A DNA stretch of 64,000 bases from NCBI GenBank assembly GCA_013287965.1, contig JABDCU010000004.1:13503-77502 (forward strand), read 5' to 3'. Below the pieces are notes generated by a model. It saw only the letters and a list, made by a program, of their open reading frames with translations. It searched no databases and had not been told where the DNA came from. The stretch is from Candidatus Omnitrophota bacterium (lineage in GTDB: Bacteria > Omnitrophota > Gorgyraeia > Zapsychrales > Fredricksoniimonadaceae). Positions 1,911 through 59,047 of the stretch are shown here, piece by piece; the first letter of the stretch is position 1; each line of letters opens with the position of its first letter. The position numbers were made by a program, and so were the translations under genes.

Positions 1911-4900
1911 TTACCCCTCTAAAAACGCCCTCAAATCCGTCATAGGCTGAATGCTAATGATCACCGGCACAAAGCCAGGCGCATTTTGCAGTTGTGCCAG
2001 CTGTGTGGGGTCAAGATGAAACTGAATCTCCCCATTGCCGTCCCCTTTGACCTCCAACGGCGTCCTGCCGGCAGTAAAATCAATACCACCTTGTCTATGT
2101 ACTTTAACAGCCATCGTCCGGCCCATTCCCTCATTTTTCCCCACCGCCATGGCCCGGTCGGCAAAACCGCCAACTTCAATTTCTTTTGTTAGCTTTTCAA
2201 CACGACCAATTTCTTTATTTCTCAATACAATAATATTCCCTGTTGGGAATTCCACAACGATCTCATCATTTACTTTTATAGGCACCTTATTTGACGGGCC
2301 AGAAATTCCCTCAACTTGATAGTGTTGCTTTCCTACTTTCTTTAAAGAGATCAAAACTTCCTCGCCATCAAAAGATGCCCGTACATCCCCCACATTCTCC
2401 CTCTTAAAAAACCCATCGGCCACCAAGGGATCGTCAATCGGCGTCCATTTTTTCATGCCCTCTGAACCTTTAATACGTACCCGAGCAGGCCATGGGAATT
2501 TTCTATATAACCTATTGGAAAAATACCAACTCAACGCCCTCCAAGTTGACCAACCTGAATTCTTAAGCTGTTTCCCTGATATCCGAACGGCCTGTATGAT
2601 ATAAAATAACGCGGCTTCAGCCCCGCCGCTATTTGCAAAACGCTTGATCGTACCTTCATGAGCTGAATATGGCCAAAAATCTCCCATCCGCCAATCACCA
2701 TTTTGACTTTTAACCAGTGTAACAGTTTTTCCCTGGCTAAAATTCTCGAACGATGGACTCCTGATATTTTGCGCTCGAGAATAAAAATAGAGGTTCAGTT
2801 CATATTCATATGGTTCATTACGCGCCCGATATTCCATGGCATAAATAAACCCTTTGCGCGTTTCTCCTGGCTTAAGCTCAACATCATTGCGTAACCGGTA
2901 TTGACCAAACTTGAAAACTTGTGACACTCCTTTTTTTCCCGTGACCAAAAAGCTCTGCCTGGGATCAGCGATAAGAACACCTGGTGTTAAAATAGCTGAC
3001 GCCTTCATCGCCCGGTCCATTCCCTCATTTCTACCCGCCGCCATGCTCCAATCCGAAACAGAATCGCTTAATCTTTCTTGGATACGCTCTTTAATTTCTT
3101 CATACCTCATTTTAGATAATAAATCTTTTAATACTTTCATCCTCTGACGCAAGGAAGATTCTAATGTTAGCATGTCCCCTGCCTGGTATTGCTCTCTCAT
3201 TGAACGGTATATATTTCTGTCTCCAATGTAATATTCAACCTTAAAATAAGATTTGGCAAGATCAGCCAAGGGAGCTTCCGTAATAGTTTTATCATCCAAT
3301 TGTAATAGGGCTTTAAGTTGATTAATTTGTACTTCATCACTGCCATTAAAATTAAGCAGAATATCCAGGAGTATTTTTGCCTGTTCACCAGATCCTGAAA
3401 CAAGCACCAGCTTTAACGCTTCTGATTGAATAACACCATCAATAAAAAAAGGCTCGTCTTTCAATATTTCTACCTGGATCCCTTTTACTTTATTAAACCT
3501 CTTTGCTAACGCTTGTATAAAATCAAGCCATAATTGGCTTTGATACATATTGGTCCCTTCTAAAAGCACATCTATATCTTTCCGGCCGGGACCAAAATAT
3601 CTTCTTCCCCCCACAATGACCGGTCTAACATGGCTTGAGATCGGACGCATAACTTCCTGTAAAACCTCTTCTAACTTTTGTATATTGTCTTCTTTCTTAG
3701 TGAAATCATAATAATCTTCCGCTCTTTCTGTTGCAGGATCATCGCTCTTCATCGCCCGGTCCATTCCCTCATTTTTATCCGTCACCATGGCCAGGTTGAC
3801 AAAGTCGCCAACTTCAATTTTCTTTGTTAGTATTTCTACACGGCCGATCTTTTTGTTCTGAAATACAATATCCCCTGTTGAAAAATCCACAACGATATCA
3901 TCGTCTACTTTTATAGGCATGTTGAACGGACCCAAAATATCCTCGACCTGATACCGTTTCTTTCCCTCCTTCTTCAAAGAGATCAAAACTGCCTCACCAC
4001 CAAGGGACGCCTGTACAACCCCTACATTCTCCTTTTTAAAAAAACCATCAGCCACCAAGGGATCATCAATTGAAATCCAATCATTCATGTCCTCTGAACC
4101 TTCAATACGCACTCGCGCGGGCCATGAAAAATTCCTATATAACCTATTATAAAAATACCAACTTAACACTCTCCAAGCCGTGTGTCCTGAATTTTTAAGC
4201 TGTCTCCCTGAAATGTTCACAGCCTGCTCAATGTAGGACAATATAACTTCGGCCCCGCCGCTTTTCGCAAAACGATTGATCGTTCCATCATCTCTCGAAT
4301 ATGGCCAAAAATTAGTCATTTGCCAGTCATCTCCTGAATCCTTATCAACTTGGACATATTTAAAATTATTAAACGAGAAAGGATCAGTATCTTTCTTTTG
4401 AGAAGAAAGAATAAAACGCAATTCATATCTTTTAGAATAAAGATTCTCAAGGGCATAAATGATCCCTTTACGTGTTTCCCCCGGCTTAGGCGTAACATCC
4501 TCCCGCAATTGGTAAGTACCCAATTCAAAAATCTGCGATTGGCCAATTTTCCCAGAGACCAAAATGCTTTTCCTTGGATCTGCAATAAGAACACCTGGCA
4601 TTAAATCAGCCGACGTTTTCATCGCCTGATCTAATTTAGGCTGGAGCTTTCTTCGGCCATCCCTTGGTTTAATATGACTGGCCCACAAAACAATGGATGT
4701 TCTGGAGCGTGCTACTCCATACTTTCGCGCTACTTTATTTATTGTCTTTTTAAGGGTCTTGTATCTTTTTTTCTTTGCCATGGACAATAATGCCTCCATC
4801 TCTGGCGATATGTCCTGGGAGCCTTTAGTTGAAATACCAAGGGCCTTCAAAACTGAGTGGACTATAGAATTTGAAACATTATATTTCTTTGCTATTTGCC

Positions 4901-7900
4901 GCTCAGTTTTATCAATGGACTTCACATTTTTTTCATGTAACTTTTTTGCCCATTTTAAGAATTTTCTTATTTCCTTTGATGGCTCCGGGCTTTTGCGGCT
5001 GCTTGCTTGAATCTCCAAGACTCGCAAAATAACATTGATTGATGTTTGCGCAACTTCAAATTTGTTTGCTATCTGTTGCGGTGTCATTTTAGTGGTCTTG
5101 CTCTTTTTCTTTTGGGCCCATGTGAGCGCTTTTTTCATATTGGGGGATGTCGTCCAGCCTTTTGTCTTAATGCTGTACACCAAACATACAACGTTGACTA
5201 TTTCCCGGCTTACTTTAAACCTCTTTGCCAACTCCATCCCGGTCATGTTCACAGACCTGCCTTCCCTTTTTTCTGCCCAGGACAAGAACCCTTCCTGCCC
5301 GGTCTTTGCCTTGGGGCTGATCTTATAAATCATGGCCAGGTCTTTGGGAGCAGCCAATTGGGCGCTGTTTTCTGTAAGCTTGACCTTGGAAACCAATTCA
5401 AACAACTGTTCCGCTCCAAGGGAAGGTATAAGTCTGGCCTGCCTGTTCCTTATCATATGAATTTGTTTTTCAACCTTATTGTCATCACCGCGCCGCATTG
5501 GAAAACTGTCTATTTTACACACCGTCCCATCAGCCCTGTCCTTTATTAAATCGCCCTTCCCCCACTTTTCCGGATTTTGATCATCAGCGCCAGCTGGAAC
5601 GAAATACTCCTGGTCCTTGCTTAAATTCTCTACATGAGGCACCGTGTCCCTCTTAATGCCATTCTCTAACATATCTAAGATGCTCTGGGTAAACGGGCCA
5701 TCCGGCCAATTATCACCCCCTTGATCATAAATTTTCCGATAATAGACGAGCGACAATTGTTTTAGTGTTTTATTCGAAGGCACTAATAACTCCGCGTCTA
5801 CGATCCAGGCCCCAAGCTCTCCATTCAAATATCCAACTACGATATTAGAAGAAATTTGTGCGTCGAGCAGTTCCAAATGGTTTTTGACGAGTCTTATAAA
5901 AAGATCCTGTACAAGTTCCAAATATCGTCTATTTACCTGCTGTTGGGATAATAACTCATGTAGAGACTTCGTGCCATCTACCGGCTTGATCCGGGTAACG
6001 GCAATGACCCCATGCCCACTGATTGTTCCTATGGCAAACGGCGGGACAACTCCCTTTTCAAGCCCCAATACAAACCCCTGCTTTTCATTTTCTATTTCTT
6101 TATTATCCCTCTCCTCTTCATTGATCATCCTAAAAACAAAACCGCTCCAAGGGCCTTCATTAAAAATTAAAATCAAAGATTGTCCTTCAGACATGACCAC
6201 TGATTTATTCCCATCCGGATCGACCAATTCATGCGCTTTTTCAGAATATTTAAACCGCTCAAAAGGAATCACCATCGCCCGGTCCGCTGGTTTGATCTCA
6301 AGGGCTAAATTCCTACCCTCCTTATGTTGTATGGCAAGCAATGCATCTTGTACGCCCGCTGCTTGCAACCTTGTCCTGTTAAGAGGCACCCAGCTCGACA
6401 TGCCCGCCAATTTAAAAATAACACCAAATGGTTTACCCATCACCGATGCCAAATGCATCATCCCCCCTTCAACCGTCAACACATAATTTGAATAGCTGAC
6501 GAAATATTTAAACATTTCCGGATTGAGTGATGGCCCAGGGGCGATCGCAATACCTCCCCGATTACTTTTGGAGACTTGATCAACTAATTCTTCCGCTATT
6601 TTCCTTGTTCCCCAGGGCGTATCATTGGGCAAAAGAACAACCTTATAATCATTACTTACTAATTTTTCTATAATACTCACTAACTCTTGCTGATCTTTCT
6701 TGCTGCGGGAAAACCCCTTGCTTTCCATTCCTCCTCCATACGGATTTAATGAAACAACCGGGTATTTATACTTATGCCCGATCAATGGGTTTCCAATCTG
6801 CTCCATCAAATGGCCCCATTGTTCCTTGAACCGGGCGTTAGGGGTCCCGTTGACCAAAAATTCTGTACCTTCTTTTTTCAAGGGCAGTCCCAACTCTGCA
6901 TTTAGCCTTGAATATACCTCATGGATATTAAATTCCCAAGGCACAGAATCATCCAAATTCAATCGGTCAGCATAATCCTGTCCATTGACCCGGATTCTTT
7001 CAAATATTAAACTCCCTACATCTGCATGATGAGCATGGATATTTAAGAAAGCATTCTTACCTATATTGCTTACCCTGAAATTTTCTTCCAAATCATTGTT
7101 AAAGGAAATCGTATTGCCGTAAAAATCAATAACAGCATCGTAATGCTCCCTGGCCCCATCAATCTGCCAATGTGTTCTGGCCAAATCCTGCATTGGAATA
7201 ATCTTGACCCTTGGATGGTTGTATAAATAAGGACGTCCCGTGATCACCGTTACCTCCAAATCCGGGTTGAAGCCCAATAATCCCTGAATTAAAGAAGCTG
7301 TTCGGACCAATTCATCCCCTTGCCCATCTTTAATGTTATGGATAATTAATATATTCTTTCTCCCATACTTTAAGTGGTTTTCTATTAACCCATGCAAGCT
7401 GAACAGCCCTCTGTTCCTGATGATACCCTCAGCTTGCTGTTGGACCAAAGAGGATGCCCGGGGATTGGTCGTGATGTAATATAAAAAATATCTAAAGTTC
7501 CGGTCCTCCTGATATACCTTGCTGATGTCTTCCAGCACAGGGACCGTTAAATCCTCCGGGTGTTTTAATGCAAACGGCTCCAAACCTTTTATTAAAATAT
7601 CCTCTCTTTCTTGATACGTTAATCCTAAACCTAACAATGATAGTACAATCCTATAAAAATTATTCCCTTCATCCTCTGACATGGCACTTATCAACTCTGA
7701 AAATCCAGCTTTATTAAAATAGTCACTCAATATGACAAACGGATCATCCCACATAAAATAGGCCCCTGTTGTGCCCAGAATGTCCTTATTAAATAATCCC
7801 TGTGTCCTCATCAAATCGATCGCCTTTGATATTGCCATGGATTCCGGGGTTTTATCACCCAATAATACTCCCTGTATTTTCCTGAATAAAGGCCGTGCTT

Positions 7901-9533
7901 TAGAAAAATTATGTTGGCTCCAAACTCTTAATACCCGTAACCGTATACCTACGCCATAATCATGGTTGGTGACAATTTGTTCCATATATTCATCGCCCAA
8001 GTAATCCGCATGGTCCAACACAAAACTCACTATCACTCTTGCCCAACGGCTATTATGTTCAGCCGACAATGCGTCTTTCAACAACCTGCCTATTAAATCA
8101 GAAGTCAACGGAAACCTTGTCGCGATCCCATAGATACCTCTAAAATACCAGTCTACGTCTTGCCCCTTGATGATTTTTCTTTCTATCAAATTCAAATAAG
8201 ATCCAATAAGAAAATCATTTGCTTGATGGGGAATGGTCAGCATGACCCCTATGATCAAATTTCTCCCTACCGGTTTCATTATTCTTCTCCAGAGAACGGA
8301 ACCAATATAGGTGTTTTTTATCTCCAAAGGGGACATTGCCCAATCAATGCCGCCTGAAAAATACTTTCTGGGAGTGATTTGCTGCGTTAGCGGGTCTTGG
8401 TCTTCTTTGATGTAGTTGTAGACGCCTTTTTTGAAGGCTTTTAGGTATTGCTGGTAGATAAATTCGACGTTGTCCTGGGAATGGATTCCCGCGAGCAACT
8501 GCGAGTGTCGGTCAATACGACCTTTCGCGGGAATGACAGTAGAAGCATATTGAATGCCGGCGACTTTATTTTTATCCGCATAGACTTGCGCCAGGATGCT
8601 GTCTTTGATCTTCTTTTTATACCAAGTGGCTAAGATCAAGCTGTTGTAAACTTGGCGAAGCTGGGCGAAGTTGCGGCCGCTGTTGACTTCCTTTGTTAAC
8701 TCGGGAATTACTATTTCGCGGACGATTTGGGAACCTAAAGCATTCACGTCATTCTGAGGCGAAGCCGAAGAATCTTTAGATGTCTTAAGATTCTTCGCTT
8801 CGCTCAGAATGACGGGGTTCTTTTGGATGACAATATTTTTTTCAAGCGCAAGGTAATCTTGCTCAAGCATGACTTTTAATTTGGCTTCTACCACATAGGC
8901 TGTGCCAGCTTTGGCATTTTCGTAGACCACGGCTTTTTCAGGGATGATCCAGACCTTATTGAATGTGTTAACAGGGATATTGGTCGTGCCAAATTTCTTG
9001 GCGGCTTCTTGGTAGATGCGTTTCCAGAATTTTTTGCCTGTTTCGCCTTCAGGATAAATTAGGCTCGCGGTGATCTGTTTGAGCATGTAATCCTCTGCTA
9101 AGAGGTCGCGGCCCATTTCGGTGAGGCCAAAGCTATTAGGAATAATGCGGTTTTTTTCGTAAGGTGAGAGATTGACCCAGAGGTCTTTTTCCGGGATGGT
9201 TAAAGAGGCCAAAAAATATTTAATAAGTTTGGTGGCTTCGGTTTGGATTCCCGCTTTCGCGGGAATGACAGTGGAACTACCTTGGTCCAAAATGAAATCA
9301 AAGCGGAATGGATTGTCGGGATGGACTTTTAGGCCTTTGAGGATCGGTGGGTTGAATTCCGGACTTAAAGGAACCATTATCCCGGGTGCAGGCAAACGAA
9401 ACTCCTGCGCTTGAGCCAAGGGCATGGGGCCGCAAGAATTTAATATAAATGATATTAAAATGATAAAAGATTGCCAGGGCCTATAAAACTGGCCTCGCAA
9501 AGACATATAGCTGCGCATAGTGAAAGTATGCAC
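1911..9533 (-). CDS. giant secreted multidomain protein (2540 aa): shared N-domain, GT9 heptosyltransferase-like domain, weak kinase-like region, 4x HTH-like repeats, duplicated 290-aa module flanking an NTase-like module, shared C-terminal domain
   Basis: A single uninterrupted ORF with an N-terminal hydrophobic segment (SFIILISFILNSC). Residues 55-400 align by eye with residues 50-350 of the 43365..47072 protein. Residues 725-1045 (nt 6399..7361) carry GT9-like motifs (NILIIHNIKDGQGDELV; LTVEGGMMHLASVMGKPFGVIF). Residues 1929-2176 contain GGRRYFGPGRKDIDVLL (G-x-n-DxD). The C-terminus reads GGIDF...LQNAPGFVPVIISIQP. Confidence 0.85.
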   Translation of the reverse strand: MHTFTMRSYMSLRGQFYRPWQSFIILISFILNSCGPMPLAQAQEFRLPAPGIMVPLSPEFNPPILKGLKVHPDNPFRFDFILDQGSSTVIPAKAGIQTEATKLIKYFLASLTIPEKDLWVNLSPYEKNRIIPNSFGLTEMGRDLLAEDYMLKQITASLIYPEGETGKKFWKRIYQEAAKKFGTTNIPVNTFNKVWIIPEKAVVYENAKAGTAYVVEAKLKVMLEQDYLALEKNIVIQKNPVILSEAKNLKTSKDSSASPQNDVNALGSQIVREIVIPELTKEVNSGRNFAQLRQVYNSLILATWYKKKIKDSILAQVYADKNKVAGIQYASTVIPAKGRIDRHSQLLAGIHSQDNVEFIYQQYLKAFKKGVYNYIKEDQDPLTQQITPRKYFSGGIDWAMSPLEIKNTYIGSVLWRRIMKPVGRNLIIGVMLTIPHQANDFLIGSYLNLIERKIIKGQDVDWYFRGIYGIATRFPLTSDLIGRLLKDALSAEHNSRWARVIVSFVLDHADYLGDEYMEQIVTNHDYGVGIRLRVLRVWSQHNFSKARPLFRKIQGVLLGDKTPESMAISKAIDLMRTQGLFNKDILGTTGAYFMWDDPFVILSDYFNKAGFSELISAMSEDEGNNFYRIVLSLLGLGLTYQEREDILIKGLEPFALKHPEDLTVPVLEDISKVYQEDRNFRYFLYYITTNPRASSLVQQQAEGIIRNRGLFSLHGLIENHLKYGRKNILIIHNIKDGQGDELVRTASLIQGLLGFNPDLEVTVITGRPYLYNHPRVKIIPMQDLARTHWQIDGAREHYDAVIDFYGNTISFNNDLEENFRVSNIGKNAFLNIHAHHADVGSLIFERIRVNGQDYADRLNLDDSVPWEFNIHEVYSRLNAELGLPLKKEGTEFLVNGTPNARFKEQWGHLMEQIGNPLIGHKYKYPVVSLNPYGGGMESKGFSRSKKDQQELVSIIEKLVSNDYKVVLLPNDTPWGTRKIAEELVDQVSKSNRGGIAIAPGPSLNPEMFKYFVSYSNYVLTVEGGMMHLASVMGKPFGVIFKLAGMSSWVPLNRTRLQAAGVQDALLAIQHKEGRNLALEIKPADRAMVIPFERFKYSEKAHELVDPDGNKSVVMSEGQSLILIFNEGPWSGFVFRMINEEERDNKEIENEKQGFVLGLEKGVVPPFAIGTISGHGVIAVTRIKPVDGTKSLHELLSQQQVNRRYLELVQDLFIRLVKNHLELLDAQISSNIVVGYLNGELGAWIVDAELLVPSNKTLKQLSLVYYRKIYDQGGDNWPDGPFTQSILDMLENGIKRDTVPHVENLSKDQEYFVPAGADDQNPEKWGKGDLIKDRADGTVCKIDSFPMRRGDDNKVEKQIHMIRNRQARLIPSLGAEQLFELVSKVKLTENSAQLAAPKDLAMIYKISPKAKTGQEGFLSWAEKREGRSVNMTGMELAKRFKVSREIVNVVCLVYSIKTKGWTTSPNMKKALTWAQKKKSKTTKMTPQQIANKFEVAQTSINVILRVLEIQASSRKSPEPSKEIRKFLKWAKKLHEKNVKSIDKTERQIAKKYNVSNSIVHSVLKALGISTKGSQDISPEMEALLSMAKKKRYKTLKKTINKVARKYGVARSRTSIVLWASHIKPRDGRRKLQPKLDQAMKTSADLMPGVLIADPRKSILVSGKIGQSQIFELGTYQLREDVTPKPGETRKGIIYALENLYSKRYELRFILSSQKKDTDPFSFNNFKYVQVDKDSGDDWQMTNFWPYSRDDGTINRFAKSGGAEVILSYIEQAVNISGRQLKNSGHTAWRVLSWYFYNRLYRNFSWPARVRIEGSEDMNDWISIDDPLVADGFFKKENVGVVQASLGGEAVLISLKKEGKKRYQVEDILGPFNMPIKVDDDIVVDFSTGDIVFQNKKIGRVEILTKKIEVGDFVNLAMVTDKNEGMDRAMKSDDPATERAEDYYDFTKKEDNIQKLEEVLQEVMRPISSHVRPVIVGGRRYFGPGRKDIDVLLEGTNMYQSQLWLDFIQALAKRFNKVKGIQVEILKDEPFFIDGVIQSEALKLVLVSGSGEQAKILLDILLNFNGSDEVQINQLKALLQLDDKTITEAPLADLAKSYFKVEYYIGDRNIYRSMREQYQAGDMLTLESSLRQRMKVLKDLLSKMRYEEIKERIQERLSDSVSDWSMAAGRNEGMDRAMKASAILTPGVLIADPRQSFLVTGKKGVSQVFKFGQYRLRNDVELKPGETRKGFIYAMEYRARNEPYEYELNLYFYSRAQNIRSPSFENFSQGKTVTLVKSQNGDWRMGDFWPYSAHEGTIKRFANSGGAEAALFYIIQAVRISGKQLKNSGWSTWRALSWYFSNRLYRKFPWPARVRIKGSEGMKKWTPIDDPLVADGFFKRENVGDVRASFDGEEVLISLKKVGKQHYQVEGISGPSNKVPIKVNDEIVVEFPTGNIIVLRNKEIGRVEKLTKEIEVGGFADRAMAVGKNEGMGRTMAVKVHRQGGIDFTAGRTPLEVKGDGNGEIQFHLDPTQLAQLQNAPGFVPVIISIQPMTDLRAFLEG
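2106..3005 (-). repeat. internal protein module copy B (aa 2177-2476) of the giant gene
   Basis: Aligns over its full length with aa 1639-1928. Examples: PGVLIADPR, KPGETRKG, NSGGAE, QLKNSG, PWPARVRI.GSE, IDDPLVADGFFK.ENVG, EVLISLKK, IGRVE.LTK.IEVG. Confidence 0.85.
3750..4619 (-). repeat. internal protein module copy A (aa 1639-1928) of the giant gene
   Basis: Paralogous to 2106..3005. Both copies end in a NEGM(D/G)R(A/T)M linker. The linker DNA at 3003..3030 is 28/28 identical to 3747..3774. Confidence 0.85.
4668..5291 (-). repeat. four tandem ~50-aa HTH-like repeats inside the giant protein (aa 1415-1622)
   Basis: Repeat pattern is L.WA.K......MT..qIAkKf.VS.s.V..vL...I. The four cores are MELAKRFKVSREIVNVV, QQIANKFEVAQTSINVIL, RQIAKKYNVSNSIVHSVL and NKVARKYGVARSRTSIVL. 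Confidence 0.7.
8483..8538. repeat. 56-nt long form of the GGATTCCCGC...GCGGGAATGACA palindromic element, in-frame inside the giant gene
   Basis: The first 27 nt and last 13 nt are identical to the copy at 48778..48833. It encodes VIPAKGRIDRHSQLLAGIH. The paralog at 43365..47072 lacks about 21 residues at exactly this point. Confidence 0.85.
8749..8813. repeat. second palindromic element family (GTCATTCTGAG.CGAAGC.GAAGAATCTT / inverted copy), in-frame inside the giant gene
   Basis: The arms are 8749..8777 and 8787..8813. They are reverse complements apart from two extra bases in the left arm. Encodes VILSEAKNLKTSKDSSASPQNDV in a segment that does not align with the paralog. Confidence 0.75.
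9245..9270. repeat. 26-nt REP-like hairpin GGATTCCCGCTTTCGCGGGAATGACA, in-frame inside the giant gene
   Basis: 8-bp stem ATTCCCGC/GCGGGAAT with a 4-nt loop. Encodes VIPAKAGIQ (aa 89-97). Confidence 0.85.
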
Positions 9534-9561
9534 TATTTTCTATGATTTTGCCATTTTTTGT

Positions 9562-9587
9562 GGATTCCCGCCTTCGCGGGAATGACA
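9562..9587. repeat. 26-nt REP-like hairpin (intergenic copy)
   Basis: Sequence GGATTCCCGCCTTCGCGGGAATGACA, between the giant gene start and the stop of the GT-C gene. Confidence 0.85.
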
Positions 9588-14591: not shown

Positions 14592-14888
14592 TTAAAATTG
14601 GGGGATCTCTAAGTTGCGCGCATGGATCTCGATCAACAGCAAAAGGCGGAATTTTAACAGGGCTTTATAATCTTTGTATTCTTTGGGGCTAAAACCGGAT
14701 GTAGCGTGGAAGGAACGGTTGGCCTCGATCTCGACCAAAGCATTCTCATAGGTATCAATGAGCTGGTCATCAGTGAGCTTGACGATGGCTGGTTTTTCTA
14801 AAATGGCCACGTCCGATGGAAATTCAGCCATGGACAGAGGGGTTAAAAACAAGACCACCATCATCGCTAAAGCTAGTTTTTTATACAT
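14592..14888 (-). CDS. small secreted hypothetical protein
   Basis: 98-aa ORF with an N-terminal signal-like segment (LALAMMVVLFLTPLSMA). It abuts pyrE. Confidence 0.5.
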   Translation of the reverse strand: MYKKLALAMMVVLFLTPLSMAEFPSDVAILEKPAIVKLTDDQLIDTYENALVEIEANRSFHATSGFSPKEYKDYKALLKFRLLLLIEIHARNLEIPQF

Positions 14889-14902
14889 AAAATCCTTTAA
14901 AT

Positions 14903-14928
14903 GGATTCCCGCTTGCGCGGGAATGACA
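14903..14928. repeat. 26-nt REP-like hairpin (intergenic copy)
   Basis: Sequence GGATTCCCGCTTGCGCGGGAATGACA. Confidence 0.85.
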
Positions 14929-14977
14929 ATATAGATTAGACACCTAAAATCTCTCCCGGGTAAGTTAATTATATGGT

Positions 14978-15074: not shown

Positions 15075-16082
15075 TCACAGTGTTCTTAGAAATTGTACCA
15101 GATTTACATTGTCATGCCAACGTTTTACTGGCTTAGATTCAATATCACAAAAAGCCAGCGCCCTTGCTTTCATTTCAAGGTCAGTTTCAGCATAAATATT
15201 GGTCGTATTGATAGAAACATGCCCCAGCCAAGCTCGTATAGTATTAATATCAACTCCAGATCGTAAGAGATGTGTGGCAGTTGTATGCCGAATTGTATGA
15301 GGGCTAACTCGTTTAAGCTTCAGAGAGGGGACTCTCTCTGAGGCTTTTAGAGCATAACGTTCAACCAAGGTATAAATGCCAAAACGCGTAATAGGCTGTT
15401 TACAACGATTAAGAAAAACATGTTCTTTAACATCCCGCCCTTCTATAAGCAACCGTATTTCCTTTACAGTTTGAGACCATAACGGACAACTGCGAAGCTT
15501 ATTCCCCTTTCCACGAATAACTACTGATGAATAATTACGGCCTGGCACATGAGCCAAATTAAGGTCAGCAATGGTAACTTGAGCCGCTTCGTCGGCACGA
15601 ACTCCGGTGTTGTAAAGAAAAAGAAGAAGCGCATGGTCACGCTGTTTTTGAGGTGAAGTACATTCGGCAGCTCCAAGTAAAGCATCCATTTCCATTTTCT
15701 CAAGATAAGGAATTAATGCATGAGGAGCTCTCTTGAAAGGGATGGCCATGATCTGTCCAGACCACTGAATATGCTCAGGACTATAAAGTCCAATAAACTG
15801 AGCCAGTGAATGAATAGCTCCCAAACGTTGATTACGGGTTGTGATGCTTGAATGACGTGTCTTTTCAAGATCAAGAAGAAAAAGTAATACGTGCTCCCTC
15901 GAAACATCTTCGATCAAAAGTTGATCAATATTTTTTCGTGTCTGAGAGGCAATGAAAGGCAGAAGTAAACACAAAGTATCGCGGTAACTGCGCTGTGTAT
16001 TATATGAAAGATTTTTGACACTGATCAAATATTCCATTAAAAAACGTCTAATCCAAGGGCCAATCAAGCTATGGTTAATCAT
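15075..16082 (-). CDS. ritC: tyrosine recombinase, third gene of the recombinase trio
   Basis: Catalytic signature GVRADE...HTIRHTTATHLL...LGHVSINTTNIYA (R..HxxR..H..Y). The symbol is assigned by position in the trio. Confidence 0.8.
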   Translation of the reverse strand: MINHSLIGPWIRRFLMEYLISVKNLSYNTQRSYRDTLCLLLPFIASQTRKNIDQLLIEDVSREHVLLFLLDLEKTRHSSITTRNQRLGAIHSLAQFIGLYSPEHIQWSGQIMAIPFKRAPHALIPYLEKMEMDALLGAAECTSPQKQRDHALLLFLYNTGVRADEAAQVTIADLNLAHVPGRNYSSVVIRGKGNKLRSCPLWSQTVKEIRLLIEGRDVKEHVFLNRCKQPITRFGIYTLVERYALKASERVPSLKLKRVSPHTIRHTTATHLLRSGVDINTIRAWLGHVSINTTNIYAETDLEMKARALAFCDIESKPVKRWHDNVNLVQFLRTL

Positions 16083-16083
16083 T

Positions 16084-17022
16084 TCAAGCCTCCTTTAAAG
16101 TATATTGTTCAAAACGATGTCCTGCTTCTTCAAGTAATGCGGGTGTCATAGTAAGATAAACAGAAGTAGCAGCCAATGTGACATGTCCCAAGTAAACAGA
16201 CAACATCAGTACAAGATTTTGTACATCTGCCCCTTCTTTATATAAAGCAGTTAGACGATGAACTGCAAAAGTGTGGCGTAGATCATGAATGCGTGGCTGT
16301 TGATCACTATCAAGACGCCTAATATTCACTTTTTCACGGATACGTCTAAAATTTTCCCCGACAGCAGGTTGCTTAACGGCTTTTCTGTTTCTCCCTATAA
16401 AGAACGAAGATTGAGGATCTTGGGAATATTTTTTCTGCTTACGCCAAGAAACGTACTCTTGTAAAACCTGAGTCAATTGTTCACCAATAGGAACAAAACG
16501 TGACTTATAAAATTTCGTTTTCCGAATTGTGAGCAATGATTGATTCAAATCAACATCAGCCAATTTTAAAGAAATAGCTTCCCCAATTCGTAAACCACTT
16601 CCATATAAAAGTAATAAAATTGTACGCATCGTATAAGGTGAAATCCTACTATTAATTTTGTGATGAGTAAAACAGCCATTAATTAAAGCCTTAACTTCTT
16701 CAGTACTGTAAATATATGGTAAAAATCGTGGGGGCTGTTTCGGTATTACCAGTGGCAAAAGTGAAGTATCCGCATATCCTCGGCTGATTACATACTTATA
16801 AAAACCACGTAATGCGCTATGTCTAACATGCCAACTTCTAGTAACGGCAAAAGTCCCTCCTGTAAGAAAACTAATTACGGAATCAGGTTTCACTTCGGAA
16901 AGTTCAATCCCTGGCTCCAAGGTCCGAACAAAAGCTTTTAGTCTCCAGGAACCACTTTCAAAGGATTCACCAAGTGATTTTCGATAATTTATATATTGAT
17001 CAACTAACGTTAAAAGCTTCAT
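16084..17022 (-). CDS. ritB: tyrosine recombinase, second gene of the trio
   Basis: Catalytic signature GLRIGEA...IHDLRHTFAVH...LGHVTLAATSVYL. It starts 4 nt inside the upstream gene. Confidence 0.8.
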   Translation of the reverse strand: MKLLTLVDQYINYRKSLGESFESGSWRLKAFVRTLEPGIELSEVKPDSVISFLTGGTFAVTRSWHVRHSALRGFYKYVISRGYADTSLLPLVIPKQPPRFLPYIYSTEEVKALINGCFTHHKINSRISPYTMRTILLLLYGSGLRIGEAISLKLADVDLNQSLLTIRKTKFYKSRFVPIGEQLTQVLQEYVSWRKQKKYSQDPQSSFFIGRNRKAVKQPAVGENFRRIREKVNIRRLDSDQQPRIHDLRHTFAVHRLTALYKEGADVQNLVLMLSVYLGHVTLAATSVYLTMTPALLEEAGHRFEQYTLKEA

Positions 17023-18266
17023 AGCACACCCCCTAAATTAAAATTGGCGACTTCCCGAAGTTTCGTAAGATTTACCTTCGTATAAACACGCGTTGTTTCC
17101 AAGTCACGGTGTCCCAGCTGGTCTGCAATAGTCTTAAGTGGAACTCCTTGATTAATTAAACGACTAGCACAAGCATGACGCAAAGAATGCGTGCCATGTT
17201 TCTTAATATCAACACCTAGTCGCCTCCAACGGGCATAAATTAGCGAAGCCAATCCTTTTAAAGGACGAAAAGGTGCGCGGAAAGTCAGAAAAATCTCACC
17301 ATACGAAACGCATTGGGGACGAGTTTTTGTAATATATTCCAACAATGCATCTGCTACGGTTTGACTAAGTGGAAATTGTTGTGCAGGCCCACGCTTCGAG
17401 TGTTTAAGACAAAAAGTTCTTTGTTTCCAATCAATATCCTCCAATCGTAATTGTCGAACTTCACTGGCACGAAAACCGTATACTGCCAAGAATAAAATGA
17501 TGGCTCGGTCACGAATGTCCAAAGGACGTTCCCCTTCTGTTGTTTTGACAAGACGTTGAATTTCTTCTAAAGAGAGTCCAGTGGGAAGCGCATCATGTCT
17601 ATATACACGCGGAGAGTTAATAGAATCTACTATTCCACAAGGACACCAGTTCCGATGCTCAGCATAACGAAGAAAACTTCGTAAAATTGACATTTGATTC
17701 TTTATAGTGCGACGAGCATATAGTCCTCGACTGAGTTCTTTAATCAAAATTGTATCAATATGCGCGGGGATGAGGTTAGCAAGGAAATGCTCAAGATCTT
17801 CTTTGGTTTTGCTAAAGAACTGTACCAATATAAAGCGACGAGTATAAATCGTTGCCTCAGATAGCCCCTTCTCTTTTCGCATGTAATTAACATACTCTTT
17901 CAACTGCCAGGGGATTCTTTGTTTTGGATCTTCAAGCCGATCCAAAAATTTCAACCAAATCTTAATATCACTAATAAAACGGTAGCCACGAGAAGAACAA
18001 GAAAAGTCTTTACGACCAAACTTTAACATTTCATCACGTAGCCAACGCCTGGTTGCGTCTTTAATTTCTTTAATCGTTATAATTCGATCATTATCAATAT
18101 TAAGATATTTAGTCGCGATATATTGATAACGAGCAATTTCACGGAGTGCTAACCACCCACTCCCTCGTTCGGCACGATAAGTAAGATACCGTAAGCGATC
18201 CTCTAACAGAGAAGCGTTACGTAGACGCTTTATGGTTCCAGGTTTCTCAAAAAGTTTCTCAAACAT
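17019..18266 (-). CDS. ritA: tyrosine recombinase, first and longest gene of the trio
   Basis: 415 aa with GFRASEV...THSLRHACASRL...LGHRDLETTRVYT. The extended N-terminal domain fits the first member of a RIT trio. Confidence 0.8.
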   Translation of the reverse strand: MFEKLFEKPGTIKRLRNASLLEDRLRYLTYRAERGSGWLALREIARYQYIATKYLNIDNDRIITIKEIKDATRRWLRDEMLKFGRKDFSCSSRGYRFISDIKIWLKFLDRLEDPKQRIPWQLKEYVNYMRKEKGLSEATIYTRRFILVQFFSKTKEDLEHFLANLIPAHIDTILIKELSRGLYARRTIKNQMSILRSFLRYAEHRNWCPCGIVDSINSPRVYRHDALPTGLSLEEIQRLVKTTEGERPLDIRDRAIILFLAVYGFRASEVRQLRLEDIDWKQRTFCLKHSKRGPAQQFPLSQTVADALLEYITKTRPQCVSYGEIFLTFRAPFRPLKGLASLIYARWRRLGVDIKKHGTHSLRHACASRLINQGVPLKTIADQLGHRDLETTRVYTKVNLTKLREVANFNLGGVL

Positions 18267-22138: not shown

Positions 22139-22157
22139 AAACCTTCTCCTTGTTTGT

Positions 22158-22178
22158 AAATAGAAAACATTTCTATTT
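22158..22178. promoter_or_regulatory. 9-3-9 palindrome AAATAGAAA-aca-TTTCTATTT upstream of the TonB-dependent receptor gene
   Basis: Perfect inverted repeat. The identical arms recur at 22654..22674. Confidence 0.5.
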
Positions 22179-22194
22179 ATTGATTAAAAAAATT

Positions 22195-22215: not shown

Positions 22216-22230
22216 AAAGATTAAAAAAAT

Positions 22231-22674: not shown

Positions 22675-22733
22675 ATACATCAAAATAAAAAAGAGTCAAG
22701 ATTTTTTATTAACTACCATACAGCAATCGCTCC

Positions 22734-43364: not shown

Positions 43365-46300
43365 TTATTGGATAAAATCCAGCAGATCGGGAATGCGGGT
43401 AACCGCGACGATGACCCCATAAAGCCCTTGAGACCTCAAAAGCATGTTCTCAAACGGCTGATCACTGATAATATTTGTCATCAGGCGGCCGTGACGTTCT
43501 AATGGGATATTGTTTAACTTAATACCGCCTGGGACCGTCATAGCCCTGCTCGCGGTAGCAATCCTCTTTGCCGGAACCTCCACTTTTAAAGATTGATCAT
43601 TCTCAACAGATCCGTCGAGACTTTCGACAAATTGCTGCAACTTTCCCATTGCCCGCCGAGTTAAAGCTATTTTGCCAGGCGTATCGTGCACACTTACAAG
43701 CGCAGCAAGTTCTTCACTTCTTAAACTTTCTTTCAAAGGGGCCAATTCAGGACATGCGCTATAAAGATGATCAAGATAAAACAATATGTCCGCATGTCCC
43801 CGGCGATTGTGAAATTCCAATACGCTGTTATTTGCCTGGTGGTATGTATCAAGAAATGACCTAAAACCATCGCCATCCCTATTTATTTCATGGCCATCCA
43901 TATCTCTCCAAACAAATAACCCTCCACTTCCATACAGTAAAAGCCTGGCTTCATCAGGATCAATGGATAGCTGGGGAGGTTCCTCGACTTTAATCTCTAT
44001 TGGTGGGGGTTCAATTTGCCAACTTTCTTCTCTTTCCCACTGTTCCTCAAAAGCCTTACGTCTTGCTTCAATTACTGCAACGAGATCAGGACTGGCTTCG
44101 TTTAAAACGTCGTACGCAATACCATATTCCTTAATCATACGATAAATCGATACCTTTTCATGAGAGGCTTGAAAAGCCCCTTCCATCACTTTATAAAGCC
44201 GTTCTCTTCCAGGTTCTCGATACATATCAACAAATTCTTGCATGTATCCGGCAAACTGCCGGCGACTTTCTTCATAAAATTGATCAATCGCCCATTTTTC
44301 CCTATGTTGGAACGCCCATACAATTCTACGAAATTTAGCACTGTCTTTGCCATTGCGCTGTGAATGTTCAAAATCAAAAGGATTGACTAACCATCCATTA
44401 ACTCTGTGCTTGATCCATTCCAATGGGCCGCCGGTCGCCGTAGCAATGGACGGGTGGCCGTTAAAACCCGACCTATTATCACTTGTACCAGATGCCTCTC
44501 GAGTCATCCATGGCATCACTAACCAGCAATCAGCTCCTGCTGTTGCCTCTTTCATGAATTCTGTTCCTGTTGTCCTTTCAATGATCACAAATTTTCCTTT
44601 AATATCAGGCTCCTGTGCCAGCCCTGTTAATACACTCACCCACTCAGGGGCCACGCCATCAAGAGCTTCACCGGCCAATAAAAGATTTGCTCCGAGCCCA
44701 TTCCTTGGTCCTAAGGGTGAATCATACACTTTATCTGGGTCACCAACGATCCACCTGATCATAGGAATGAACAGGGCCTGGGATTTATATTCTACCATCC
44801 TTCGAACAGCGGCAAACAATGGCCTGTGATTGTCAGTAAACCCCTCAAATCCCATACTCCTTATATAATCATTTAAATCATTTTTCTGGCCTGATCCAAT
44901 ATTAAACAGTTCCTGTCCAGTAATATGGGCTATCCCTTTTTGTGAAATAAGCCTGTTAAGCCCATCAGAGCGCCACAAGGGCGGTAAAGATCCATTCTGG
45001 ATGCCGGTTGTTTTGTGCGCAAAACCGGGTAAAATTGCTTCACGGGTAATATCAGCAGCTTCCAGCGAAACGCCGTTAATCAAATCCGCATGATGTGCCA
45101 TAGCTCCGGCTGCATTCACTTGCCCGTTATATATAATATCGTCTCGCACAAGATCAGAACCCACCAGGTATTTTAAATGTCCAACGTCTTTCCAAACAGG
45201 CAATGCGCCAAATTCAGGAGTATGTGTCGTCATTACAAACTTGGTTGCTACAAAAATGCTCCGTTCACCTTTTTCTCTTTTGGCATCAATATCGTTCAAT
45301 ACGGCTGTCATGACAAAAATCAATTGCGGCTCGCTTAATCGTATTATGCGGGGAGCAATGCCTAAGGCATAACATAGCTCAACATAGGCCTTACCCATAA
45401 AACCATATTGTACTACTTGCTCGTCGCCTCCCGGGTACAACCTTTTAAACAGGTCGCGTTGTTTGATAGCCAATACGGGTGTTCCATTCGCATCGACCCA
45501 GTAGATATAGGCGCGTTCTTTTTTCCCTTTGAAATCCACATCAATGGAAAGGGCATGGCTATTGCCTTTCCCATCTTGAACAATAACAGGATGGACCCCT
45601 TCCTGGTGGTCCCAGTCAACTTCAACGCCATTCTTATCATTGCTATAAAGCGGCATAACGCCTGCGGCATTCCACTTGGGCAAAAGAGCGTTATAGGATT
45701 GAAAAGTTTCACCTGCCAGGAAGCCAAGCCCTCCTTTGCCTAACGCTAGTTGGGCCGTCCCTTTAATGGGAACTAAGAAAGATTCAAGGGTCACATCAGT
45801 GATGGCCCCACTCCCCTTTGGATATTGCAAATCGGAAATAACCTTCTCAGGGCCGTTTACAATCTGCAATTGTTTCCCGTGATAAAACGCCTTGGATGGC
45901 TCAATTTGGGCTGCAGTTTTCTTGAAATCGACCTGAAGGTCAATATCATTTTCTGTCGTAGCCATGGCCTTGTTGAAACTGCCTAAAGAGGCCGGCTCGC
46001 GCATGATCGGCTGCTCTACAAAACCCCCCGAAAAATACTTCCTGGGAACAGGCTGTTTGGAAAACCGGTCAGTTTCTTCCTTAATATAGTTAAAAACGCC
46101 TTTCTTATACGCAGCCAGATATTGATGATAGATACGATCTTTGTTTTTAGGATCACTGACATCAATGCCTGCTATCTTGCTGCGTCCTGAATAATCTTTA
46201 TTGAGTATCGATGATTTGAAGACATCCCTGTACCATTGCGCGAGGATCAGGGCATAGAACACCTGCCTTAACGGCGCGAAATTCCGGTCTTCATTCACTT

Positions 46301-47072
46301 CTTTTTCTATCGCGGGAATAATGACAACACGCATGATCTGTTTGGAAATATCCTTAACAGGCGCGTGGCTTGACTCCGGGTTCCTTTTACCTTGCCGGCT
46401 TTGGGCCAGCAAATCTTCTTCCAGCATGACCTTCAAATGCGCATGGATGATGTAAACCGTATTGTCCTTTTCATAAACGGAAGCTTTTTCAGGAAGGATC
46501 CAAACTTTATTGAATATATTGATCGGGACCTCGGTGACCCCGAATTTTCTATAAGCCCCCTCATAAACTTCATTCCAAAATGACCGGCCAAGCCTGCTTT
46601 CCGGATATATAAGGGAAGAGCTGATCTGTTTGAGGATATAGTCCTCGGCCAAAAGGTCGCGGCCTAACTCGGTCTTGATCAAGGCATCCGGAATGATATG
46701 GTTTTTCTCAAACGGTGATAAATTGACCCACAGGTCCTTTTCAGGGATGGCCAAAGAGGCCAGGAAATAATTGACCATGCGCTGGGATGTTTTCTTAAAA
46801 TCATCAGCGCTTAATTTTTCATCGCCGGGATCTACAATGAAATCAAACTTGAAGGGATCTTCAGGGTGGACTTTCAAGCCCTTTATTAAAACAGGTTCAA
46901 AGGCCGGGCTTAAAGTGACCCTTGTCCCTGGTTTAGGCAAGATGAATGGCAGGCCTGCTGGATCAACGGGAAGTGAGTGGGAATAGGCAAACGATGGGAA
47001 AATAGATGTTACTAAAAAACTAAGTAAAACCCAAGCACATAAAACGCGGCGTAAAATGATCATTAGCCTCAC
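43365..47072 (-). CDS. secreted 1235-aa paralog of the giant protein: shared N-domain + GT35 (alpha-glucan phosphorylase)-like core + shared C-terminal domain
   Basis: Signal peptide. Residues 50-350 align with the giant protein (LSPAFEPVLIKGLKVHPEDPFKFDFI, YFLASLAIPEKDLWVNLSP, GRDLLAEDYILKQI, KGVFNYIKE, PRKYFSGG). Residues 440-900 carry GKGGLGFLAGE, TTHTPEFGA, GIQNGS and REASGTSDNRSGFNG. The C-terminus PGGIKL...GLYGVIVAVTRIP parallels GGIDF...GFVPVIISIQP. Confidence 0.85.
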   Translation of the reverse strand: MRLMIILRRVLCAWVLLSFLVTSIFPSFAYSHSLPVDPAGLPFILPKPGTRVTLSPAFEPVLIKGLKVHPEDPFKFDFIVDPGDEKLSADDFKKTSQRMVNYFLASLAIPEKDLWVNLSPFEKNHIIPDALIKTELGRDLLAEDYILKQISSSLIYPESRLGRSFWNEVYEGAYRKFGVTEVPINIFNKVWILPEKASVYEKDNTVYIIHAHLKVMLEEDLLAQSRQGKRNPESSHAPVKDISKQIMRVVIIPAIEKEVNEDRNFAPLRQVFYALILAQWYRDVFKSSILNKDYSGRSKIAGIDVSDPKNKDRIYHQYLAAYKKGVFNYIKEETDRFSKQPVPRKYFSGGFVEQPIMREPASLGSFNKAMATTENDIDLQVDFKKTAAQIEPSKAFYHGKQLQIVNGPEKVISDLQYPKGSGAITDVTLESFLVPIKGTAQLALGKGGLGFLAGETFQSYNALLPKWNAAGVMPLYSNDKNGVEVDWDHQEGVHPVIVQDGKGNSHALSIDVDFKGKKERAYIYWVDANGTPVLAIKQRDLFKRLYPGGDEQVVQYGFMGKAYVELCYALGIAPRIIRLSEPQLIFVMTAVLNDIDAKREKGERSIFVATKFVMTTHTPEFGALPVWKDVGHLKYLVGSDLVRDDIIYNGQVNAAGAMAHHADLINGVSLEAADITREAILPGFAHKTTGIQNGSLPPLWRSDGLNRLISQKGIAHITGQELFNIGSGQKNDLNDYIRSMGFEGFTDNHRPLFAAVRRMVEYKSQALFIPMIRWIVGDPDKVYDSPLGPRNGLGANLLLAGEALDGVAPEWVSVLTGLAQEPDIKGKFVIIERTTGTEFMKEATAGADCWLVMPWMTREASGTSDNRSGFNGHPSIATATGGPLEWIKHRVNGWLVNPFDFEHSQRNGKDSAKFRRIVWAFQHREKWAIDQFYEESRRQFAGYMQEFVDMYREPGRERLYKVMEGAFQASHEKVSIYRMIKEYGIAYDVLNEASPDLVAVIEARRKAFEEQWEREESWQIEPPPIEIKVEEPPQLSIDPDEARLLLYGSGGLFVWRDMDGHEINRDGDGFRSFLDTYHQANNSVLEFHNRRGHADILFYLDHLYSACPELAPLKESLRSEELAALVSVHDTPGKIALTRRAMGKLQQFVESLDGSVENDQSLKVEVPAKRIATASRAMTVPGGIKLNNIPLERHGRLMTNIISDQPFENMLLRSQGLYGVIVAVTRIPDLLDFIQ

Positions 47073-47218: not shown

Positions 47219-48391
47219 TTAGGAATGATAAATGCGCGGGAGGCGGCTGCCTAAAGAGCAGAGGATCTCATAGCTGATGGTGTCTGCCCATTGGGCGATT
47301 TCGTCTGCTGAAATTGTTGAGCCTTTTTGAACGCCCATGATGACAGCTTCATCGCCAATTTTAGGAATATGGCCTGAAAGAGTGACTGCGGTGATGTCCA
47401 CAATGATCTGGTCCATGGTCACACGCCCTACCACCGGACAACGCACACCAGCCACCAGAACAAAAGCTTTATTGGACAAGGAACGCAAATACCCGTTGCT
47501 GTAACCAATGGACAAAACCGCAACGGTAATATCTTCCTTGGCCTTAAAGGTATGTCCGTAGCTGATGCCCCGGCCACGGGCAATGGTCTGCACAAAAATA
47601 ATGCGGGCCTTGACCGACATCACCGGCTTTAAATGGACCTTCTTTTTTAAATCTTCCAGCGGATAAACGCCGTAGAGCATAATACCTGGACGGGCCAGGT
47701 TAAAAAGATCAGACTTATAATCGCCCAGCCCCATGCTGTTGCCCGCGTGCACATACGTAAAAGTGATGAATTGATTTTCCAGGGAATACACGATGTCACG
47801 AAAACGGCGCATCTGGCCTAAAGTAAAATCACGGTCCGTGTCAGCGAGAGGAAGATGGGTATAAATGCCTTCCAGGATTAAATTAGGGCATTGGGCTTTA
47901 AGTGATTCCACAAAGGGCAGGGCCTGCTCTTCATTGACCCCCAAACGGCCCATCCCGGTGTCTATTTTGATATGCACAGGGATTTGGATACCTGCCTGAT
48001 GAGCACAGCGGTCTAATGCCTGGGCCATTTCCAAAGAACAAACCGTCGGTGTCAGTTTATATTCGACGATATCACGGGCTTCGGAGGCCAAAGTGGATTC
48101 GAACAATAGGACCTTCTGCTGGAAACCCGTGGCGCGCAGGGTCACGCCTTCGGTGGTATTGGAAACCCCCCAATATTTACAGCCGCACTCCCTCAAACAC
48201 TCGGCAACCTGGACCATCCCGTGGCCATAAGCATCGGCTTTGATGACCGGCACAATACCCAAAGAATGCGACATGTTTTTAGCGGCAACCTTCTGCAATT
48301 GTTCAAAATTATGCGCCAGCGCTTTAAGGTCTATCTCACACCAGGTCGGCGGATGAACAACTGTTTCGAAATTTAATATTTTAAGTTGCAT
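47219..48391 (-). CDS. alr: alanine racemase
   Basis: PLP-lysine motif VIKADAYGHG and a C-terminal beta domain. Confidence 0.9.
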   Translation of the reverse strand: MQLKILNFETVVHPPTWCEIDLKALAHNFEQLQKVAAKNMSHSLGIVPVIKADAYGHGMVQVAECLRECGCKYWGVSNTTEGVTLRATGFQQKVLLFESTLASEARDIVEYKLTPTVCSLEMAQALDRCAHQAGIQIPVHIKIDTGMGRLGVNEEQALPFVESLKAQCPNLILEGIYTHLPLADTDRDFTLGQMRRFRDIVYSLENQFITFTYVHAGNSMGLGDYKSDLFNLARPGIMLYGVYPLEDLKKKVHLKPVMSVKARIIFVQTIARGRGISYGHTFKAKEDITVAVLSIGYSNGYLRSLSNKAFVLVAGVRCPVVGRVTMDQIIVDITAVTLSGHIPKIGDEAVIMGVQKGSTISADEIAQWADTISYEILCSLGSRLPRIYHS

Positions 48392-49142
48392 TTTTGGGGG
48401 TCACCTGGCAGTCTTGCGGATACAAATACAACGGCAAAAGGCCTGCGGCATCATCGTATTGTTTCTTTCGAAAGCGCTCATAAGCCAACGCTGCCATCAC
48501 ACGCGCTTGAGGATGCCAGTATTTTTCATCAGCAAAGAAGCATTTACAGGTACTGCTCTTCTTAGAAGCATATTTTTGATACGCTTCTTCAATATCTTTA
48601 CGATATAGGCTGAGGCCATCACCCGTAAAAAGCGTCCTGCCATGTACTTTATCTAAAACATCTTCAAGTGAGGTCAATAAATAGTCACTGGTGCGCCCCT
48701 TGGGACCATAGAGGCAGGCATACACCTTGTCCCGGCGGGCATCGGCGATGACGCAGATTTCGTCATAATGAGAAAATGGATTCCCGCGAGCAACTGCGAG
48801 TGTCCGGTATGAGGACCTTGCGCGGGAATGACAAATTCCAGAAGCAATGATGTCCAGGGTTGGGATGCCGACCACGGGCTTACCCGTACTCATCGCAAAA
48901 GCCTTCACCGTACTTAAGCCCACCCGCAAGCTGGTAAAAGAACCCGGGCCTAAACCAATGGCAAAGCCGTCAACCTGGCTGAACTTGACCCCGGCCAGGC
49001 CAAGCATTTTATCCATTGCCGGTAAAATGGAATCCTCCAGCACTAAAGCAGATTTTAAATTCCTAAAACGTAAGACCTGCTCATCTTTGTTAAGGGCTAA
49101 TGAGAAGATCTTGGTTGAGGTTTCGAAGGACAAGAAATACAT
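48381..49142 (-). CDS. tsaB: tRNA t6A37 biosynthesis protein TsaB, carrying an in-frame palindromic element
   Basis: Motifs LSFETST, GLGPGSFTSLRVGLS and KPVVGIPTLD. The insert HSRARSSYRTLAVARGNPFS is encoded by the repeat at 48778..48833. Confidence 0.85.
   Translation of the reverse strand: MYFLSFETSTKIFSLALNKDEQVLRFRNLKSALVLEDSILPAMDKMLGLAGVKFSQVDGFAIGLGPGSFTSLRVGLSTVKAFAMSTGKPVVGIPTLDIIASGICHSRARSSYRTLAVARGNPFSHYDEICVIADARRDKVYACLYGPKGRTSDYLLTSLEDVLDKVHGRTLFTGDGLSLYRKDIEEAYQKYASKKSSTCKCFFADEKYWHPQARVMAALAYERFRKKQYDDAAGLLPLYLYPQDCQVTPKNAT
48778..48833. repeat. 56-nt long form of the GGATTCCCGC...GCGGGAATGACA element, in-frame inside tsaB
   Basis: Same termini and same first 27 nt as 8483..8538. 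The reading frame stays open through it. Confidence 0.85.
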
Positions 49143-59009: not shown

Positions 59010-59021
59010 TATCCCGTTTCT

Positions 59022-59047
59022 GGATTCCCGCTTTCGCGGGAATGACA
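59022..59047. repeat. 26-nt REP-like hairpin directly upstream of ispD
   Basis: Sequence GGATTCCCGCTTTCGCGGGAATGACA. Confidence 0.85.

Follow-up and report, generated by a model that had tools for sequence, protein, structure and literature searches.

How a gene of 2540 codons can take up three palindromic DNA hairpins and still be read from end to end is the question raised by a 64,000-nt stretch of Candidatus Omnitrophota DNA (GenBank GCA_013287965.1, contig JABDCU010000004.1, positions 13,503 to 77,502, forward strand; at its full length called the window below). The hairpin concerned is, judged by its sequence, a repetitive extragenic palindrome (REP) of the CGTC-1 type, the same element as the Neisseria repeat known as dRS3 or NTS; three of its six copies in the window lie within genes without breaking the frame (two in the giant gene and one in a tsaB-like gene), and a related 69-nt pair of hairpins is added to them in the giant gene. 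It is quite probable that CGTC-1/NTS hairpins were inserted in genes, persisted in tolerant loops and were spread by way of single-stranded DNA (ssDNA) and a nuclease of the Ssn type.

The pattern GGATTCCCGC-N4-GCGGGAATGACA was found at 9245, 9562, 14903 and 59022 (all + strand; expected number 0, 100 shuffles), and a 56-nt form with identical termini and a common interior at 8483-8538 and 48778-48833; all six copies, as given in a preliminary description of this DNA, were recovered by pattern search, and so was the stem of 8 bp (ATTCCCGC/GCGGGAAT). A conserved T precedes every copy, and the unit lengths become 27 and 57 nt (9 and 19 codons). Read on the - strand, the short copy is TGTC-ATTCCCGC-GAAA/GAAG/GCAA-GCGGGAAT-CCA (27 nt including the flanking T); the unpaired TGTC tag opens all six copies, the four short copies have a 4-nt loop (GAAA, GAAG or GCAA), and the tail CCA follows the stem in six of six. 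The long form is the short unit with 30 nt between the loop and the 3' arm. Orientation is the same in all six copies, each of which is single; the reverse-complement word GCGGGAATCC is absent from the window. Over the full length of the window the + strand has a negative GC skew, so that the tagged strand of every copy is the G-rich strand, and this strand is the sense strand of nearly all window genes. The 27-nt unit can be read without a stop in five of its six frames. No target-site duplication, the mark of a miniature inverted-repeat transposable element, flanks any copy in the window; a search of Rfam found no RNA family over the hairpins (one tRNA was the sole match in the window). A half-match at 11120 (- strand) was rejected as coding sequence of a glycosyltransferase-2 gene (VVIPAKDEE), unrelated to the element.

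In the definition of CGTC-1 repeats (Di Nocera et al. 2013, PMC3733652) the tag is CGTC or TGTC, the stem has 8 bp and AT as its first bases, the loop has 4 nt, and the tail is CCA; the same authors list CGTC-tagged REPs for five phyla, equate CGTC-1 with dRS3 in Neisseria and with RPE-6, one of the Rickettsia palindromic elements (RPEs), in R. conorii, and report intragenic copies, mostly in R. conorii. All of these sequence features are present in the window copies, including complementary A-T pairing at stem positions 1 and 2, as CGTC-1 requires; the head-to-head dimer organisation of CGTC-1 is not seen in the six copies, the related hairpin at 8746-8814 being the sole pair. The Neisseria element was later redefined as the 28-nt NTS, CGTCATTCCCGCGMAVGCGGGAATCYRG (2025 Ssn paper, PMC11893778). 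From this consensus the copies differ at the first position (T for C), sometimes at the last, and nowhere else; the published pattern of the Ssn-related motif (SRM) is found in three of the four short copies (0.18 expected), and the dRS3 pattern ATTCCC-N8-GGGAAT fits all four. The hairpin had been called REP-like in the preliminary description and likened to the palindromes of Rickettsia: the CGTC-1 features and the NTS/dRS3 match bear out the first statement, and the published identity of CGTC-1 with RPE-6 (PMC3733652) supports the second, the likeness being, on that published statement, probably one of homology rather than analogy. A palindrome lying in frame in functional open reading frames (ORFs), as in RPEs, is found here in the giant gene (three inserts) and in tsaB.

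One genome per species was scanned with 19 specified bases, at least 120 loci or genomes being obtained; Pseudomonadota, Bacteroidota, Chloroflexota, Planctomycetota, Nitrospirota, Patescibacteria, Acidobacteriota, Neisseria and others were among the matches listed. In the 174 copies listed, positions outside the search pattern are conserved (before the stem T in 147, G in 147 and G in 164 of 174; loop YTKC; a purine, R, after GAC), so that this is one homologous element of defined polarity and not a set of convergent hairpins. Among these matches from other genomes, dimers (inverted pairs, 35-90 nt apart) are frequent, and the unit NTS-ssn-NTS was seen directly in a Methylotenera contig (L045). 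The exact NTS pattern was also met in more than 120 IMG/VR viral or prophage contigs (L202-L321; up to five copies each); the element may travel from host to host in viruses, or the viral matches may be host flanks of prophage calls. One NTS copy lies, in the VIPAQAGI frame, inside a 584-codon ORF of a metagenome-assembled genome assigned to Nanoarchaeota (L096, position 1512); either the element occurs in an archaeon or the contig was binned wrongly.

The giant ORF is open through both of its NTS copies, read as VIPAKAGIQ and VIPAKGRIDRHSQLLAGIH just as first described. Comparison of the first ~400 residues of the giant protein with its paralogue (BLASTP; 47% identity, E 5e-117) left the paralogue with a gap of 21 residues exactly where the long element lies, in agreement with the roughly 21 extra residues claimed for position 8483, and a further gap of ~17 residues at the 8746-8814 palindrome. 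This palindrome, the 69-nt pair (DNA minimum free energy ca. -29 kcal/mol; in-frame peptide VILSEAKNLKTSKDSSASPQND), is a third palindromic insert of the giant gene; it and the in-frame position of the 48778 copy in tsaB go beyond the preliminary description. The insert in TsaB sits in a loop region. The window is metagenomic, and neither the exact giant protein (two start codons tried) nor TsaB is on record in other assemblies, as might be expected if the in-frame look were an artefact of assembly or sequencing at the hairpins, or if the giant gene were a pseudogene; the probability of this is very small, however, the 2540-codon frame being open over three inserts and alignable to homologues after each, and like in-frame inserts being present in dozens of independent JGI, ENA and NCBI assemblies.

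The N-terminal 400 residues gave 1508 homologues at E <= 1e-10; those with names were nearly all Candidatus Omnitrophica/Omnitrophota (one was labelled Minisyncoccia), which puts the organism of the window in Omnitrophota; their C-terminal regions are very different, and Pfam has no domain in the N-terminal region of any homologue. Site lengths were taken from an alignment of 120 homologues, and the DNA of 80 further homologues (1.05 Mb) was collected in a metagenome scan. The modal lengths are the short ones, e.g., GDSQLSNDQLKDES and NIDDPQEKQR in the alignment; with P0006 as the uninserted reference for site positions, core insertions of at least 5 residues are found only after positions 90 (31/97), 236 (41/97) and 310-319 (~30/97). 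Among 202 site alleles, 79 are inserted and 123 baseline; inserted DNA folds at -0.150 kcal/mol/nt (local controls -0.081), baseline alleles at -0.064 (local controls -0.056), and a folding Z below -2 was obtained for 49% of the inserted alleles vs 12% of the baseline ones. Each site holds 7-9 distinct hairpin families; NTS is present at all three (7, 6 and 5 alleles), together with three GTCAT-tagged families (VIARSEATKQS, SPNxLIGDP and VILSEAKDL...PQND) and several untagged G+C-rich hairpins. At site 1, four different CGTC-tagged families stand at an identical position with the common downstream flank (N/Q)QEQLK. In the allele of L151 (TIIPLRAGIH) the NTS stem has decayed and the insert is kept.

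A comparison of two sequences cannot polarise an indel, and the extra residues might on that ground be taken as ancestral, deleted in the paralogue, with their palindromy a coincidence of codon choice. The short form prevails among ~200 homologues; the inserts are the same DNA as intergenic copies of the window and as copies from other phyla; and unrelated hairpins occupy the same site in different homologues. Alleles of several families at one site, the short majority and the L151 allele together exclude a single ancestral insertion as well as a deletion in the paralogue, and ancestral residues have scarcely any probability left. The segments are, from the sequence comparison, insertions when set against the paralogue and most homologues. 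The test proposed at the outset, orthologues with and without the insert, thus ended in favour of insertion: most homologues are uninserted and others carry unrelated hairpins at the same positions; similar residues encoded by non-palindromic DNA, named beforehand as the refuting case, were not seen, similar peptides using the same palindrome or a decayed copy of it (L151).

An AlphaFold model of the domain was built from 97 sequences (mean predicted local distance difference test, pLDDT, 80.2; predicted template modelling score, pTM, 0.70); it supersedes an earlier 34-sequence run (pLDDT 62.6) that gave the same picture. Site 1 is placed by the model where strand 78-83 meets helix 93-112, site 2 in coil 239-258 (pLDDT 54-57) and site 3 in coil 321-352 (pLDDT 54-55), with helices of pLDDT > 90 on both sides of each; all three sites are thus modelled as low-confidence loops between confident helices. 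As they are also the sole positions of core indels, the model supports the proposal, made in the preliminary description, that the inserts are tolerated in loops. A Foldseek search of the PDB with the domain model gave no match at E <= 0.001.

In the 80 Omnitrophota loci, 37 NTS-like copies were counted (at least 14 at the hot spots of the family, ~10 elsewhere in long ORFs, 13 intergenic); the gene of an ABC-F ATPase (L130) is another host. The corresponding figure for loci outside Omnitrophota with G+C < 50% is 3 of 29 copies in long ORFs. The Omnitrophota loci were collected through the domain family, which inflates their intragenic share; even so, the copies outside the family also lie within genes more often than copies elsewhere. 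Of 29 intragenic copies, 21 use the VIPAKAGI frame and six the antisense DSRFRGND frame.

These counts bear on whether the inserts are kept by selection, either as a source of varied loops in an N-terminal domain that is secreted or lies at the surface, or as regulatory hairpins of mRNA or DNA. With 79 of 202 site alleles inserted at exactly three positions by 7-9 families each, a strong bias to one sense frame, a similar peptide retained by the decayed copy of L151, an intragenic share of 24/37 as against 3/29 in other low-GC genomes, and a predicted hydrophobic segment preceding the domain at the N-terminus of the giant protein, such selection finds some support; it is nevertheless judged unlikely, for the same elements are also present in tsaB and ABC-F, which are housekeeping genes, and between genes, disorder is predicted for the inserted segments, and the intragenic share is inflated by the choice of loci.

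Insertion into tolerant loops would proceed, by analogy with Neisseria, as follows. The hairpin would fold on ssDNA and be bound by a GIY-YIG nuclease of the Ssn family, which would nick just 5' of the tag; NTS-ssn-NTS would be the autonomous element and solitary hairpins its non-autonomous derivatives; existing hairpins or a preferred target would draw further insertions, and hot spots would arise. The unit lengths being multiples of three (27, 57 and 69 nt) and five frames being open, 9-23 residues would be added with no truncation; copies would persist solely where a loop accepts extra residues, and the hairpin would later decay through point mutation, the added peptide remaining. The model for this scheme is SsnA, a GIY-YIG nuclease of ~94 aa that binds NTS and cuts just upstream of it, solely in ssDNA and solely on one strand, and whose homologues across phyla are flanked by NTS-like motifs (SRM) in an IS-like layout, NTS-ssn-NTS (PMC11893778). 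That every copy has its tag on the G-rich strand agrees with an ssDNA mechanism because the sequence of this strand is exposed on the lagging-strand template, and the different CGTC-tagged families at an identical position, together with hairpins nested in loops, suggest that further insertions are attracted. We infer in this way both the mobility of the element and its agent.

The enzyme that mobilises such hairpins is not settled in the literature, Bertels and Rainey having treated the Neisseria sequence ATTCCCGCGCAGGCGGGAATC as a REP, or REPIN (its doublet form), of a Group 2 RAYT (REP-associated tyrosine transposase) and linked REPIN decay to RAYT loss. Spread by a RAYT, i.e., a Y1 tyrosine transposase of the IS200/IS605 type, in place of Ssn would agree with that assignment and with the inverted pairs 35-90 nt apart that are common in other genomes, the 69-nt insert being such a pair. 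It is considered rather improbable: no tyrosine transposase gene with flanking CGTC repeats was found in any species (Di Nocera et al., PMC3733652), SsnA binds and cuts NTS directly and is statistically associated with it across phyla (PMC11893778), a crude motif search for Y1 transposase/RAYT gave nothing in the window or in the 1.05 Mb of Omnitrophota loci, and the window copies are mostly single.

Several observations weigh against the spread of NTS by an Ssn-type nuclease and its simple toleration in loops. No ssn (cd10448) or other GIY-YIG gene was found by regular expression, tblastn or a small hidden Markov model in the window or in the 1.05 Mb of Omnitrophota loci, a weak negative for ssn, as the sample amounts to about half a genome's worth over many genomes. 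Near-identical pairs of filled and empty alleles were not found (three pairs were identical, the rest of <= 88% identity). At site 1 the net gain in length is +2 to +8 residues and not exactly +9, so that the events are old or imprecise. Many hot-spot hairpin families have no CGTC tag, so that a single enzyme cannot be behind every family. Finally, simple tolerance does not explain why the VIPAKAGI frame is in such strong excess; the excess is only in part shared ancestry.

The 30 nt that distinguish the long form are a module in their own right. The module, GGTCNNNNNGACCGACACTCRCAGTTGYTC, recurs, among the loci scanned, solely in those of Omnitrophota: in loops of NTS and of one different hairpin family, abutting a 5' CGTC tag, or alone, and in one case triply nested; its small internal stem varies with pairing ability kept. 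Nesting of this module in hairpin loops appears undescribed, as far as literature searches show. Such nesting can be read as a sign that insertion in Omnitrophota is targeted, hairpin into hairpin or into a sequence common to CGTC-tagged families, and has produced three cassette-like hypervariable loops; this is a tentative reading and is held to be doubtful. Were it true, a phylum-specific N-terminal domain heading more than 1500 proteins, many of them large, would bear hypervariable loops, the 30-nt module would nest specifically in hairpin loops, and the bias to one sense frame would come from the insertion mechanism or from selection on the encoded loop.

Table 1. Features of the window and module sites in other loci (L numbers are labels of collected loci; a dot denotes no strand).
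Feature	Position	Strand	Remarks
Giant gene	1911..9533	-	2540 aa; N-terminal ~390 aa, Omnitrophota-specific domain with three insertion hot spots
Domain region in giant gene	8334..9533	-	
Long form	8482..8538	-	57 nt; giant gene site 3, in frame, encodes VIPAKGRIDRHSQLLAGIH
30-nt module GGTCGTATTGACCGACACTCGCAGTTGCTC within NTS	8493..8522	-	nested in long form
Head-to-head pair, related CGTC-tagged hairpin	8746..8814	.	69 nt = 23 codons, CGTCATTCTGAGCGAAGCGAAGAATC..GATTCTTCGGCTTCGCCTCAGAATGACG; giant gene site 2
Short hairpin, CGTC-1/NTS	9244..9270	-	27 nt, loop GAAA; giant gene site 1, in frame, encodes VIPAKAGIQ
NTS copy	9561..9587	-	intergenic, between giant gene start and upstream gene; matches published SRM pattern
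NTS copy	14902..14928	-	intergenic, 147 nt from tyrosine recombinase trio
Paralogue of giant gene	43365..47072	-	1235 aa, same N-terminal domain, without inserts at sites 2 and 3
Domain region in paralogue	46023..47072	-	
tsaB-like gene (PF00814)	48381..49142	-	carries second long-form insert
Long form	48777..48833	-	57 nt; in frame in tsaB, other reading frame, peptide CHSRARSSYRTLAVARGNP
30-nt module variant GGTCCTCATACCGGACACTCGCAGTTGCTC	48788..48817	-	small internal stem differs from 8493 copy, pairing kept
NTS copy	59021..59047	-	intergenic, just upstream of probable ispD start
Module sites in other loci	L122 7084; L123 4370; L127 10596; L130 4740 and 6905; L138 383; L157 2712; L164 10245; L182 1158; L199 2797		

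Two of the intergenic copies affect annotation. The 14902 copy makes a spurious small ORF (14758-14934, + strand, ending ...WIPACAGMTI). The 59022 copy is translated as SFPRKRES only when a TTG is taken as the start of the ispD ORF, and the hairpin then gives rise to a false extension at the N-terminus, LVSFPRKRES... (59009-59051, - strand). Both match the statement in the preliminary description that peptides of this hairpin turn up as spurious small proteins. The strings VIPAKAGIQ, SFPRKRES, HSRESGNP, WIPAFAGMT and DSRFRGND may be used to flag the element, and account for spurious annotations, small ORFs as well as N-terminal extensions, of which 14758-14934 and 59051 are examples.

Other features of the window were recorded as follows. 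Three adjacent tyrosine recombinase genes (PF00589 in each; 15075-18266, - strand) resemble a 'recombinase in trio' element. In the giant protein, residues ~1390-2480 comprise two modules of ~330 residues (LIADPR...SGGAE...WPARVRI) and four or five helix-turn-helix-like repeats of ~60 residues. One further hairpin, CAAGATTACATTTTTGTAATCTTG, occurs twice (30629-30648 and 34364-34387), directly downstream of the stops of two - strand genes. AT-rich palindromes TAAATAGAAA..TTTCTATTTA at 22157-22179, 22193-22217 and 22652-22676, beside a TonB-dependent receptor/ExbBD/TonB/Fur cluster, may be Fur boxes.

The element, and in-frame insertion of its superfamily, are already known; its presence in Omnitrophota, the high intragenic share and the three multi-family hot spots are undescribed, as far as literature searches show (searches for the peptide strings gave no matches, and the literature found on Omnitrophota giant genes does not mention hairpins). 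A repeat of Neisseria, Rickettsia and alphaproteobacteria is hereby extended to Omnitrophota, which, as to entry into coding sequence, is a free-living or episymbiotic counterpart of the Rickettsia RPE case. The hot-spot domain offers hundreds of natural replicates of peptide gain via palindromes, usable in the study of the origin and decay of protein segments.

With CGTC-1 REPs the window hairpin shares the tag, the 8-bp AT-first stem, the 4-nt loop, the CCA tail, many dispersed copies and occasional copies in ORFs that add residues; it differs in that Omnitrophota are not among the phyla listed for them, and in its mostly single copies and high intragenic share. REPIN-RAYT systems likewise consist of short hairpins, at times as inverted doublets, and the Neisseria version was analysed as a REPIN, whereas the tag is CGTC here and GTAG there, singletons prevail here, and no RAYT was found in the window or the loci. 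RPEs of Rickettsia resemble the inserts as in-frame palindromes that add short peptides to coding genes, housekeeping ones included; phylum and lifestyle are different, RPE-1 has 100-150 bp against units of 27-69 nt here, and hot spots of several families in one domain family are not described for RPEs, as far as literature searches show. With the NTS/dRS3/SRM repeats of Neisseria the core sequence and its polarity are held in common, while entry into coding sequence is far commoner in Omnitrophota than reported for Neisseria: 2% of NTS copies are intragenic in N. meningitidis (PMC11893778), as against 3/6 in the window and 24/37 in the related loci.

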